This document shows positions 36,482-38,210 of a DNA stretch of 64,000 bases, piece after piece; the stretch's first letter is position 1; each line of letters begins with the position of its first letter. A program made the translations under genes and the position numbers. The notes below the pieces were generated by a model. It ran no database searches. It was not told where the DNA came from and saw nothing but the letters and a program-made list of their open reading frames with translations. Source of the DNA: Escherichia coli (GTDB taxonomy: Bacteria; Pseudomonadota; Gammaproteobacteria; Enterobacterales; Enterobacteriaceae); the NCBI RefSeq assembly GCF_003334785.1, contig NZ_QOWV01000001.1; one strand, 5' to 3'.

Positions 36482-36629
36482 TCTTTTTTGCTTGAAAAAT
36501 AAAGTATTAGCGTTCTGCGTTAAGACTTTTTTCATGGGTGCCGGATACAAAAAAGGCCGCAGGCTGTTACCCCTGCGGCCGGTTTCGGGCGCATATTGCC
36601 ATCACGGCAGCCTGACGCCCGTTTTCACC

Positions 36630-36737
36630 TTACTTCCGGTTACGCCACCAGCTGACAATCGCTGCGGTAATAATTCCCGCCAGGATCGGTGCTGCCAGGT
36701 CGTGCCAGAAAATCATGGCAAACTGCGCGAGCGTCAT
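36630..36737 (-). CDS. ldrA: Type I toxin Ldr, 35 aa (copy 1)
   Basis: Minus-strand translation MTLAQFAMIFWHDLAAPILAGIITAAIVSWWRNRK*; too short for the 60-aa ORF track. Confidence 0.8.
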   Translation of the reverse strand: MTLAQFAMIFWHDLAAPILAGIITAAIVSWWRNRK

Positions 36738-37164
36738 ATAGCCGCCTTGTTGTAATGACAACATTTTGCGGCTATTCTTGAAGTGTCTGGTTTCAAGATT
36801 AGCCCCCGTTCTGTTGTCAGGTTTTACCTCTCAACGTGCGGGGGTTTTCTCTTTCCAGCAACCAATGCCACCAGGGATAAAGCCCCCGCAACATTGCGCC
36901 TCACCGGATAACGCCGGCTTGGTGTGGATACTACGACTCAATTCATCTTCACTTCATCCCTGAAATGTTTGCAATGAAGAGTGCATTCCGGTTTTTCAAC
37001 AGCTGTTACAGTCATTTCATGAGTGCTCTGGATGAGGCTTCCAGCTCGGGTTGCCAATATTTACTTGTGGAAGTGATAAAGACAAAAATGGCCGCAGGCT
37101 GTTACCCCTGCGGCCGGTTTCGGGCGCATATTGCCATCACGGCAGCCTGACGCCCGTTTTCACC

Positions 37165-37272
37165 TTACTTCCGGTTACGCCACCAGCTGACAATCGCTGC
37201 GGTAATAATTCCCGCCAGGATCGGTGCTGCCAGGTCGTGCCAGAAAATCATGGCAAACTGCGCGAGCGTCAT
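37165..37272 (-). CDS. ldrB: Type I toxin Ldr, 35 aa (copy 2)
   Basis: Same coding sequence 535 bp downstream of copy 1. Confidence 0.8.
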   Translation of the reverse strand: MTLAQFAMIFWHDLAAPILAGIITAAIVSWWRNRK

Positions 37273-37699
37273 ATAGCCGCCTTGTTGTAATGACAACATT
37301 TTGCGGCTATTCTTGAAGTGTCTGGTTTCAAGATTAGCCCCCGTTCTGTTGTCAGGTTTTACCTCTCAACGTGCGGGGGTTTTCTCTTTCCAGCAACCAA
37401 TGCCACCAGGGATAAAGCCCCCGCAACATTGCGCCTCACCGGATAATTCCGGCTTGGTGTGGATACTACGTCTCAATTCATCTTCACTTCATCCCTGAAA
37501 TGTTTGCAATAAAGAGTACATTCCGGCTTTTCAACAGCTGTTGCAGTCGTTTCATGAGTGCTCTGGATGATGCTTCCAGCTCGGGTTGCCAATATTTACT
37601 TGTGGAAGAGATAAAGACAAAAATGGCCGCAGGCTGTTACCCCTGCGGCCGGTTTCGGGCGCATATTGCCATCACGGCAGCCTGACGCCCGTTTTCACC

Positions 37700-37807
37700 T
37701 TACTTCCGGTTACGCCACCAGCTGACAATCGCTGCGGTAATAATTCCCGCCAGGATCGGTGCTGCCAGGTCGTGCCAGAAAATCATGGCAAACTGCGCGA
37801 GCGTCAT
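37700..37807 (-). CDS. ldrC: Type I toxin Ldr, 35 aa (copy 3)
   Basis: Same coding sequence 535 bp downstream of copy 2. Confidence 0.8.
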   Translation of the reverse strand: MTLAQFAMIFWHDLAAPILAGIITAAIVSWWRNRK

Positions 37808-38210
37808 ATAGCCGCCTTGTTGTAATGACAACATTTTGCGGCTATTCTTGAAGTGTCTGGTTTCAAGATTAGCCCCCGTTCTGTTGTCAGGTTTTACCTC
37901 TCAACGTGCGGGGGTTTTCTCTTTCCAGCAACCAATGCCACCAGGGATAAAGCCCCGCAACATTGCGCCTCACCGGATAACGCCGGCTTGGTGTGGATAC
38001 TACGTCGCAATTCATCTTCACTTCATCCCTGAAATGTTTGCAATGAAGAGTACATTCCGGCTTTTCAACAGCTGTTGCAGTGGTTTCGTGCAGGGTGTGG
38101 TACAGGCTCGCAATTCTGATTAACGACCTGTCCAGGTAGTATGAAGAAATACAATAAGCAGGAATTTATATTATCTCCCCCGATTACCGTCATCGGAGGA
38201 GATATAACTG

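Follow-up and report, generated by a model that had tools for sequence, protein, structure and literature searches.

The three-unit repeat array between kdsA and chaA in an Escherichia coli chromosome: correspondence to LDR-A/B/C and candidate elements for repression of ldr by Rdl

The LDR locus of Escherichia coli has been described since 1999-2002, and it has Pfam and Rfam families of its own as well as a solved toxin structure. The LDR-A/B/C array of MG1655, said to have been described by Kawano et al. in 2002, comprises three units (ldrA/rdlA, b4419/b4420; ldrB/rdlB, b4421/b4422; ldrC/rdlC, b4423/b4424). It is collinear with the locus analysed here, occupies the same position between kdsA and chaA, and agrees with it in unit spacing and in the 1-bp deletion of the third unit. 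LDR-D (ldrD/rdlD, between bcsG and yhjV), which has been characterised experimentally, lies far from the array as a single copy. Like the units described below, it has a 35-aa toxin, an Rdl RNA antisense to the leader (-112 to -49), a leader ORF-A and a terminator, and the ldrD locus, the best match in a genome that lacks the array, is 80.6% identical over 37% of a 2-kb query. The LdrA and LdrD peptides are 57% identical (PMC8309996). A leader frame starting with TTG is in frame with ldrD in LDR-D, whereas that of the present units ends in ATGA.

Ldr is an alpha-helical inner-membrane peptide whose structure has been determined by NMR, and its overproduction leads within minutes to the collapse of ATP synthesis and to nucleoid condensation (PMC8309996, PMC7472228). 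Published work on toxicity concerns LdrA and LdrD rather than each copy, and Rdl counteracts this toxicity (PMC4147584, PMC8309996, PMC7472228). Rdl blocks Ldr synthesis post-transcriptionally, as published for the RdlD/LdrD pair, and both transcripts as well as an ldrD-rdlD duplex cut by RNase III have been shown in vivo in K-12, the duplex as p19-captured dsRNA (PMC7373196). Reviews up to 2021 nevertheless treat the mode of Rdl repression of ldr as unsettled (PMC8309996).

Several other type I systems bear comparison with ldr/rdl. The hok/mok/sok system of plasmid R1 and its chromosomal copies may work alike (PMC4147584, PMC8167048). As in ldr/rdl, the leader is long, the antisense RNA binds ahead of the ribosome-binding site of the toxin gene, RNase III cleavage occurs, a leader frame has been proposed (mok; ldrX), and the full-length mRNA is predicted to close between its 5' and 3' ends. 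In contrast, there is no sequence or family kinship between the two, and 3'-end processing and coupling are at most putative for ldr. The Fst/RNAI-RNAII system (par of pAD1), which belongs to the Fst/Ldr superfamily, has a small single-helix membrane toxin with a P-x-x-x-G motif (P17 to G21 in Ldr) and a charged C-terminus, and nucleoid condensation on overproduction is common to Fst and Ldr (PMC7472228). The NCBIfam Fst model NF033608 scored the ldr peptide at 14.6 bits, below its cutoff of 26 (E 0.022), which amounts to a distant superfamily resemblance only, and the NCBIfam scan gave no Ldr-specific match. The antitoxins also pair differently, since the par RNAs are convergent and pair at their 3' ends, whereas ldr and rdl are divergent and pair in the 5' leader. 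Finally, Ibs/Sib and Zor/Orz of E. coli are likewise tandem chromosomal type I modules, with different toxin and RNA families, and their cognate specificity is attributed to small differences between antisense RNAs (PMC2943612; PMC8167048). The three Rdl RNAs described below are identical, and discrimination between copies on this basis is therefore impossible.

The window analysed here is a stretch of 64,000 nucleotides from E. coli (RefSeq assembly GCF_003334785.1, contig NZ_QOWV01000001.1), and all positions refer to it. Judged by its sequence, the locus is almost certainly the chromosomal LDR-A/B/C array of E. coli; it is already known and annotated, and it is ordinary. The repeats are laid out as follows.

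36547..38081, no strand assigned: LDR array of three units of the long direct repeat in tandem, from repeat search, unit alignment and self-BLAST
36547-37081, 37082-37616 and 37617-38081: LDR units 1, 2 and 3, head-to-tail
37953..37956, no strand assigned: site in unit 3 where a 1-bp deletion leaves CCCC in place of CCCCC, also found in MG1655 ldrC

An earlier note, made from the letters alone, had described three tandem units of about 535 bp between kdsA and chaA, each encoding the 35-aa Ldr toxin on the minus strand in a frame under the 60-aa cutoff of the ORF list, and had expected Rdl on the plus strand upstream of each ldr without placing its ends. It had also called the units imperfectly identical, with a 1-bp deletion in unit 3 near 37955, and had proposed aligning them. 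All of this has held up: repeat search and alignment confirm three tandem units, RefSeq annotation of identical and near-identical records confirms the flanking genes, Pfam, the PDB match 5LBJ and RefSeq confirm the toxin, the Rfam rdlD model confirms Rdl and now places its ends, and the deletion falls in the C-run listed above, which reads CCCCC at 36883-36887 and 37418-37422. Two repeat families were returned by the repeat search. The first, D1, is 300 nt long (36547-36846, 37082-37381, 37617-37916), 100% identical among copies and spaced by 535/535; the second, D2, is 205 nt long (starts 36884, 37419, 37953), 95/100/81% identical and spaced by 535/534. In the unit alignment, the ldr-rdl core shows no difference among the three copies, and all inter-unit differences are confined to the ldr-distal part of about 235 bp and to the first few bases. 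Self-BLAST limits the homology to the array boundaries given above, so that unit 3 is truncated on the chaA side. Tandem Repeats Finder reported no repeat because the 535-bp period exceeds its maximum of 500.

The toxin genes lie on the minus strand.

36630..36737, minus strand: ldr copy 1 (ldrA position), 35 aa MTLAQFAMIFWHDLAAPILAGIITAAIVSWWRNRK, from Pfam, RefSeq CDS WP_000170955.1 and substitution pattern
37165..37272, minus strand: ldr copy 2 (ldrB position), same sequence as the other two copies, from ORF list and RefSeq
37700..37807, minus strand: ldr copy 3 (ldrC position), from ORF list and RefSeq

The ORF called mechanically is 44 aa long, as it starts from an in-frame ATG further upstream, and its last 35 codons are MTLAQFAMIFWHDLAAPILAGIITAAIVSWWRNRK. 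The peptide matches Pfam PF13940 (Ldr_toxin) with residues 1-35 on model positions 1-35 of 35 (E 1.8e-24) and PDB 5LBJ, the LdrD structure (E 1.5e-10). In a record 100% identical to the region, the RefSeq annotation has three Ldr family toxins between kdsA and chaA, and all three products are named 'type I toxin-antitoxin system toxin Ldr family protein'. The peptide WP_000170955.1, whose accession is also that of the two flanking copies in strain JKHS016, is presumably the published K-12 LdrA sequence. Homologues were collected by scanning genome contigs with a degenerate DNA pattern that encodes FWHDLAAP; of the 44 loci so found, four (Rothia L021, Nonomuraea L039, L047 and L048) were set aside as chance matches. 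About 50 homologous genes from Escherichia, Citrobacter, Pseudocitrobacter, Kluyvera and Salmonella are each 35 codons long, with start and stop in common. Among 44 distinct homologous CDS, single-site codon differences in the ldr frame are 6731 synonymous vs 4495 nonsynonymous, counts to be read with the caveat that the scan pattern fixes codons 10-17, and the other two frames of the same strand give 3321/8883 and 1121/10455. This substitution pattern identifies the 35-codon frame as a real coding sequence under purifying selection.

The antisense RNA and its putative promoter could be positioned in every unit.

36785..36850, plus strand: Rdl copy 1 (rdlA position), Rfam RF01813; MG1655 rdlA maps to 36785-36851
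37320..37385, plus strand: Rdl copy 2 (rdlB position), Rfam RF01813 and MG1655 annotation
37855..37920, plus strand: Rdl copy 3 (rdlC position), Rfam RF01813 and MG1655 annotation
36750..36778, plus strand: predicted Rdl promoter, copy 1, TTGTAA at 36750-36755, 17 nt, TATTCT at 36773-36778, then 6 nt to G36785

The Rfam rdlD model (RF01813) has three full-length matches (1-66 of 66), each scoring 91.4 bits where the gathering score is 50, and the ends it assigns fall within 2 nt of the MG1655 annotation of rdlA, rdlB and rdlC. The 66-nt RNA is fully complementary to positions -113 to -48 of the ldr leader relative to the start codon; Rdl thus overlaps the 5' untranslated leader of ldr, and neither the coding sequence nor the ribosome-binding site. 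It is predicted to fold into a 16-nt single-stranded 5' tail followed by a terminator-like stem-loop of 9+5+4 bp (-26.7 kcal/mol, z -4.5), and the changes seen in the stem, when read on the Rdl strand, are compatible with G-U pairing (116 G-U vs 12 A-C cells). A small hairpin at the start of Rdl (CTTGAA...TTCAAG) also shows compensatory changes, with a G-U/A-C pattern that fits no one strand specifically. The predicted promoter is repeated at +535 and +1070, and its hexamers are conserved in an alignment of 48 sequences (AGAATA/GGATAG and TTACAA/TTGCAA on the ldr strand), although it scores below the threshold of the consensus scan.

Every one of the 5,426 complete E. coli genomes searched matches the region, and the genomes carry one, two or three LDR units. 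The window and MG1655 are 99.5% identical over 2 kb, with only 10 substitutions, all in the array; each replaces a variant found in one of the three MG1655 units by the majority base of the other two, and together they form three separate tracts. Unlike in MG1655, all Ldr peptides of the window have the LdrA/LdrC sequence, with no LdrB variant, and all Rdl copies are identical. In MG1655, the ldrB coding sequence is set apart by three substitutions (at 37188, 37228 and 37247), rdlA has four differences in the 5' tail, one in the body and one just upstream of its start, and rdlC has one. Either gene conversion or assembly polishing has thus removed the ten unit-specific variants of MG1655 from this array.

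That the identity of the 300-bp core is a product of assembly or polishing, in which reads of three near-identical units were pooled, is plausible, though it falls somewhat on the doubtful side. If so, the source strain would have the unit-specific variants of the MG1655 type, including the LdrB peptide variant. In its favour, all ten differences from MG1655 lie inside the array and go toward the two-of-three majority base. The window, which differs from MG1655 by about 15 scattered SNPs, carries a rare ISSfl8 insertion common to only two natural isolates, JKHS016 and AST198; on account of these SNPs and this insertion, a K-12 laboratory strain was rejected as its origin. The close relative JKHS016 has the MG1655 state at all ten sites. 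The homogenised array occurs in only two of the 5,426 genomes, one of them a J53 hybrid assembly that is 100% identical to the window over 2 kb, whereas the canonical J53 assembly is 99.6% identical over the 2-kb query. The rtT repeats at 54427-54514, which form another repeat family, are homogenised too relative to both references; however, the change there is one unit copied onto its neighbour, with no majority rule. In favour of a biological origin, gene conversion and unequal crossing-over are clearly active at the locus, given the one, two or three units found among genomes. The other relative with the ISSfl8 insertion, AST198, has a single unit, and several genomes stand at intermediate identities of 99.7-99.8%. 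The array thus changes fast, as related strains have one unit, three distinct units or three identical ones, which calls for caution with copy-specific variants such as LdrB and rdlA in assemblies.

The comparative alignment also offers concrete candidate elements for the repression of ldr by Rdl. Each unit is predicted to give an ldr mRNA of about 374 nt, in which a leader of 184 nt precedes the 35 codons of ldr and a 3' UTR of 81 nt follows them.

36928..36933, minus strand: predicted ldr -10 box, copy 1, TAGTAT; copies at 37463-37468 and 37997-38002
36555..36580, minus strand: intrinsic ldr mRNA terminator, copy 1, with a GC-rich stem of 9 bp and a T run to about 36548; copies at 37090-37115 and 37625-37650 by terminator scan
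36587..36620, minus strand: 3' UTR element with predicted pairing to the SD and start codon of ldr and the adjacent leader (36732-36765); copies at 37122-37155 and 37657-37690

The mRNA start is placed near 36921 (37456 and 37990 in units 2 and 3) from the position of the -10 box, and a TAGAAT/TAGTAT box is kept 31-36 nt upstream of the leader ATG in homologous loci. A simple sigma-70 consensus scan of the region gave no site above threshold; both promoters, placed by conservation, are predictions only. The terminator scan found terminators for both RNAs, ldr mRNA and Rdl, and that of ldr is conserved with compensatory changes (alignment columns 363-372 with 383-392). The mRNA of a single sequence folds at -165.1 kcal/mol (z -6.07), and in the consensus fold, too, the SD and AUG of ldr are paired with the 3' UTR. 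This pairing is kept in 98.2% of 1199 cells, as opposed to 30-61% when the partners are slid against each other, and it contains seven double-change cells, a number reached in none of 500 shuffles. Covariation in the long-range helices is modest: three pairs have double changes, a level reached by 75 of 500 shuffles, and the percentage paired, at 98.2, barely exceeds the 97.9 of the shuffles, most columns being invariant or showing wobble-compatible transitions. Among the five genera, conservation is 95% over roughly the first 70 nt of the leader and 81% over the toxin gene.

Two frames in the leader deserve consideration.

36817..36894, minus strand: leader ORF-A in the ldr 5' UTR, SD GGTGAGG at 36899-36905, ATG at 36894, 25 aa MLRGLYPWWHWLLERENPRTLRGKT
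36734..36796, minus strand: leader frame B, 20 codons, TTG 6 nt after a conserved GGGGG in the Rdl-complementary region; copies at 37269-37331 and 37804-37866

The second copy of ORF-A spans 37352-37429, and that of unit 3 is frameshifted by the 1-bp deletion to 20 aa (37901-37963). Its start codon is ATG in 40 of 48 sequences, GTG in five, ACG in two and GCG in one. ORF-A as a conserved peptide was rejected, with 68 synonymous vs 550 nonsynonymous differences and indels in six of the 48 sequences. The TGA of frame B overlaps the ATG of ldr (ATGA), and the frame is open to the ldr start in all 46 distinct loci, with one control frame open in about 33 of the 46 too; as a coupling ORF, frame B is therefore putative only.

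A hok/mok/sok-like model for such a leader was reportedly proposed by Gerdes, Wagner and Kawano. To our knowledge, a hok-like fold-back lock with an activation step has never been demonstrated for the ldr family. The array is very probably best explained as three Ldr/Rdl type I modules, for which a mechanism of this kind is proposed. The full-length ldr mRNA would be translationally closed, with its SD and AUG paired with the 3' UTR and its 5' GGCGC paired with GCGCC near the 3' end. As the SD and AUG would be sequestered, ribosomes would reach ldr only via the proposed entry site in the upstream leader. The single-stranded 5' tail of Rdl may bind this entry site (GGGGG-N6-UUG and a neighbouring hairpin loop), and the initial pairing would then zip into a 66-bp Rdl-ldr duplex that would stop upstream translation and mark the mRNA for RNase III. 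Within this scheme, the leader-coupling step is finely poised, leaning slightly to the negative, and the ldrX leader-frame model, described along with the LDR repeats in PMC4147584 and PMC8167048, is explicitly unconfirmed in the literature (PMC4147584).

Rdl might instead act without any upstream frame, either through RNase III decay only or through a refolding of the leader that keeps the ldr ribosome-binding site closed, an option that deserves serious attention even if we consider it rather improbable. The ldrD-rdlD duplex was captured in the form of RNase III products, and both RNAs were slightly stabilised in an rnc mutant; on the other hand, full-length ldrD was only slightly affected in that mutant (PMC7373196). 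The lack of coding constraint on ORF-A and its indels, as well as the control frame that is open beside frame B, also speak for an action of Rdl without translation of the leader. In the consensus fold, moreover, the 5' half of the Rdl target (CCCCCGCACGUU) partners the AUG-A region, so that Rdl binding would rearrange the leader. Two further observations weigh against this alternative. Rdl pairs at least 48 nt upstream of the start codon, a distance that makes direct occlusion of the ldr SD impossible, and the SD-like GGGGG and the UUG are conserved in the Rdl target, with a frame that enters the ldr AUG in every locus. To return to the mechanism with upstream ribosome entry, the conserved upstream AUG is predicted to lie in a helix whose partner strand is inside the Rdl target. 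The modelled folds tentatively suggest that ldr may use a hok-like fold-back lock and an activation step, with Rdl steering leader refolding and ribosome entry and not masking the toxin start.

The plus-strand ORFs of 61-95 aa are the only ones of more than 60 aa in the array, but it is hardly credible that they are the true genes, with the short frames of the minus strand being incidental. They have no NCBIfam match and are annotated in neither RefSeq nor MG1655; stops interrupt the frame opposite ldr in 26 of 44 distinct homologues, and its substitutions are of a non-coding type (3006 synonymous vs 8304 nonsynonymous); and the 1-bp deletion extends the ORF of unit 3 from 65 to 95 aa (37836-38123). 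The earlier note had regarded these ORFs as artefacts and had noticed the effect of the deletion, and both views are supported here. A sub-threshold Rfam match to bxd_2 was dismissed. The notion that the units are of the hok/sok type and not ldr/rdl is similarly remote: the sok model (CssrC, RF01794) matches the ldr leader at 36735-36887, 37270-37422 and 37805-37956 with 25.7-29.3 bits (E 0.001-0.01), yet these scores fall short of the gathering score of 59 and belong to a gapped alignment of low confidence, the Pfam scan of the peptide returned Ldr_toxin only and no Hok/Gef, and the rdlD model matches over its full length and well over threshold.

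Between kdsA and chaA, the flanks named in the earlier note, RefSeq annotates three genes as "type I toxin-antitoxin system toxin Ldr family protein", and a repeat search of the window recovered the three tandem units as head-to-tail copies at 36547-38081. From 14831 on, the window is collinear with E. coli K-12 MG1655 (window x = NC_000913.3 x + 1,232,538), which carries ldrA/rdlA, ldrB/rdlB and ldrC/rdlC at the collinear positions. The locus is not new: it is the LDR-A/B/C array of Rudd (1999) and Kawano et al. (2002) (summary in PMC4147584), for which annotation and experimental work already exist. 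Its 2-kb region was matched in every one of the 5,426 complete E. coli genomes that were searched. The earlier observation is confirmed and its interpretation supported by the following features:

36547, 37082, 37617: 300-nt repeat family, three copies, 100% identity throughout
36884, 37419, 37953: 205-nt repeat family, three copies, 95/100/81% identity, spacing 535, then 534
36630-36737, 37165-37272, 37700-37807, minus strand: ldr ORFs (ORF list), each ending in MTLAQFAMIFWHDLAAPILAGIITAAIVSWWRNRK
36555-36580, 37090-37115, 37625-37650: intrinsic terminators of the ldr mRNAs (terminator scan)
36785-36850, 37320-37385, 37855-37920, plus strand: Rdl, full-length Rfam rdlD matches, 91.4 bits against a gathering score of 50

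Tandem Repeats Finder missed the array only because it accepts periods no longer than 500. When the units were aligned column by column, as the earlier note had called for, their differences were confined to the ~235 bp distal to ldr and the first few bases. The 1-bp deletion noted near 37955 is real: the C-run of unit 3 is CCCC (37953-37956), as against CCCCC at 36883-36887 and 37418-37422, and MG1655 ldrC has the same deletion.

The 35-aa peptide encoded by the minus-strand ORF of each unit has an end-to-end match to Pfam Ldr_toxin (E 1.8e-24); it also matches the LdrD NMR structure 5LBJ (E 1.5e-10). A search of one genome per prokaryotic species with a degenerate DNA pattern for FWHDLAAP yielded 44 loci, 40 of them in Escherichia, Citrobacter, Pseudocitrobacter, Kluyvera, Salmonella enterica subsp. 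arizonae/diarizonae and other enterobacterial contigs. The homologous genes have 35 codons each, with start and stop unchanged. Among 44 distinct coding sequences, single-site codon differences in the ldr frame were 6731 synonymous versus 4495 nonsynonymous, as compared with 3321/8883 and 1121/10455 in the other two same-strand frames, and the variable columns fell 24/19/33 by codon position, codons 10-17 being invariant by construction of the search. One Pseudocitrobacter vendiensis copy (locus L036, 1255-1638) has a premature stop (…IVGW*RNRK) and is probably decaying. An E. coli-type ldrD on a 503-bp contig (L024, coverage 0.66) of an assembly labelled Bacillus sp. is most likely contamination.

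The plus-strand ORFs of 61-95 aa were rejected as genes, as the earlier note had held: they have no NCBIfam match, are unannotated in RefSeq and MG1655, and the frame antisense to ldr is interrupted by stops in 26 of 44 homologues. On the minus strand, an in-frame ATG at 36764 (37299, 37834), 27 nt upstream of the ldr start, opens a 44-aa ORF (MLSLQQGGY + Ldr). Its use as the ldr start appears unlikely, because it is without a Shine-Dalgarno sequence and confined to Escherichia A/B/C-type copies (at -27; -30 in one).

The ends of Rdl, expected on the plus strand upstream of each ldr, can now be placed, and those annotated in MG1655 lie at most 2 nt from the Rfam matches. Rdl opposes the ldr leader from -113 to -48, leaving the coding sequence and the ribosome-binding site outside the overlap. 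In its predicted fold (-26.7 kcal/mol, z -4.5), 16 nt at the 5' end stay free as a tail, ahead of a long stem-loop and a U-run. On the Rdl strand, the changes seen in the stem are compatible with wobble pairing (116 G-U versus 12 A-C), a pattern that fits selection on Rdl itself. A small hairpin also spans the Rdl start (36776-36796, minus strand CTTGAA-ACCAGACAC-TTCAAG), with compensatory changes between genera (GC to UA, 4 sequences) and a wobble pattern compatible with either strand; in the mRNA, the complement of the Rdl 5' tail would be exposed in the loop of this hairpin.

The leader itself was compared in a 48-sequence alignment of the whole predicted ldr mRNA (A1). A TAGAAT/TAGTAT box conserved 31-36 nt upstream of the leader ATG predicts an mRNA start near 36921 and a length of ~374 nt. 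Across five genera, mean column identity reached 95.4% in A1 columns 27-100 (36825-36895 in unit 1) versus 81.3% in the toxin coding sequence, and what variation these columns show is C/U facing G in predicted helices, indicative of constraint on the RNA rather than on a peptide. The leader ORF whose ATG lies at 36894 (ORF-A) follows a strong Shine-Dalgarno sequence, GGTGAGG, and its start is kept as 40 ATG, 5 GTG, 2 ACG and 1 GCG (n = 48). Its substitutions, 68 synonymous and 550 nonsynonymous, are the reverse of a coding pattern, and 6 of 48 copies have indels; if ORF-A is translated, the act of translation alone could matter. The unit 3 deletion, one of these indels, frameshifts the conserved leader ORF of ldrC (minus-strand ORF 37901-37963; MLRGLYPWWHWLLERENPRTLRGKT to MLRGFIPGGIGCWKEKTPAR) and leaves the G-run opposite CCCCC in a predicted leader helix one G shorter. 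This effect on the ldr-strand leader ORF is more relevant than that on the plus-strand artefact.

The single-sequence fold predicted for the ldr mRNA (-165.1 kcal/mol, z -6.07) agrees with the consensus fold of A1. In both, the ldr Shine-Dalgarno sequence, AUG and adjacent upstream leader pair with a 3' UTR element (36587-36620), the 5' GGCGC pairs with GCGCC near the 3' end, and the ORF-A AUG pairs with CCCCCGCACGUU, within the Rdl target. In the long-range helices, 98.2% of 1199 cells are paired, versus 30-61% with slid partners, and 7 cells have double changes (0 of 500 shuffles); support is moderate because the percentage paired is barely above that of the shuffles.

LdrA and LdrD are alpha-helical inner-membrane peptides; ATP falls within 2 minutes of LdrA overproduction, and LdrD condenses the nucleoid (PMC8309996, PMC7472228). 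RdlD blocks LdrD toxicity post-transcriptionally (PMC4147584), and RNase III cleavage of the ldrD-rdlD duplex yields a ~21-nt product that ranks among the most abundant dsRNAs captured by p19 in E. coli (PMC7373196). The mode of Rdl repression is still listed as unknown (PMC8309996), and coupling of ldr to a leader ORF, "ldrX", has been proposed but is unconfirmed (PMC4147584, PMC8167048). From the comparative leader and fold analysis, we tentatively favour a hok/mok/sok-like model, in which the full-length mRNA would be closed, ribosomes would enter from the leader, binding of the Rdl 5' tail would block this entry, and RNase III would then cut the ldr-Rdl duplex. The main rival, mRNA decay or refolding without any coupling, is only somewhat less probable. 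Bearing on coupling is a leader TTG located 6-10 nt after the conserved GGGGG, inside the Rdl target. Its frame is open to the ldr ATG in 46 of 46 distinct loci, being in frame with ldr in 31, ending in ATGA in 8 (window included) and ending inside ldr in 7; since one control frame is open in ~33 of 46, this result is consistent with coupling and no stronger. Rfam sok on the ldr leader (25.7-29.3 bits, threshold 59) and NCBIfam Fst (14.6 bits, cutoff 26) are sub-threshold and confer no membership; at most, they echo an analogous architecture and the distant Fst/Ldr superfamily.

Relative to MG1655, the window differs at 10 positions in the array, each unit-specific variant being replaced by the majority base, and carries an insertion element elsewhere:

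36783, 36787-36791, 36824: homogenised sites, rdlA region
37188, 37228, 37247: homogenised sites, ldrB
37881: homogenised site, rdlC
13477-14830: IS110-family ISSfl8, 1,354 bp, transposase of 349 aa on the plus strand, at the treA-dhaM intergenic boundary

As a result of the ten changes, the window has neither the LdrB peptide variant nor the rdlA tail variant, and the 300-bp cores are identical. This state was found in only 2 of 5,426 genomes. ISSfl8, with inverted sequence (ATGGTCACCCCC / GGGGGTGACCAT) near both ends, occupies the treA-dhaM site in only 2 of 5,426 complete E. coli genomes, the isolates JKHS016, which has the MG1655 state at 10/10 sites, and AST198 (L052, NZ_AP043606.1), which has a single ldr unit; the window thus derives from a K-12-like natural isolate and not from laboratory K-12. 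Homogenisation of the same kind affects the rtT repeats after two tRNA-Tyr genes (54427-54514), which differ from both MG1655 and JKHS016 by nine substitutions, so that a 178-bp unit now differs from its neighbour at 1 position instead of 10; this region holds four RtT copies and two tRNA genes by Rfam, identified as tRNA-Tyr by the MG1655 and JKHS016 annotation. The homogenised ldr array may reflect either gene conversion in three tracts or an assembly-polishing artefact.

Copy number at kdsA-chaA differs among closely related strains: AST198 has one unit, and one MG1655-labelled assembly, NZ_CP010442.1, has two. Of 30 records sampled at even spacing, three units were present in 11, two in 11 and one in 7, and 1 record had a match at the ldrD locus only. 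Tandem arrays were also seen in other homologous loci (L045 6597-8008, L044, L028, L009, L022, L010), with three copies in Kluyvera sichuanensis (spacing 532/496), two each in Escherichia whittamii and K. cryocrescens, and two ldrD-type copies each in E. coli SCPM-O-B-8794 and Escherichia sp. E1V33; the ldr family seems prone to tandem duplication.
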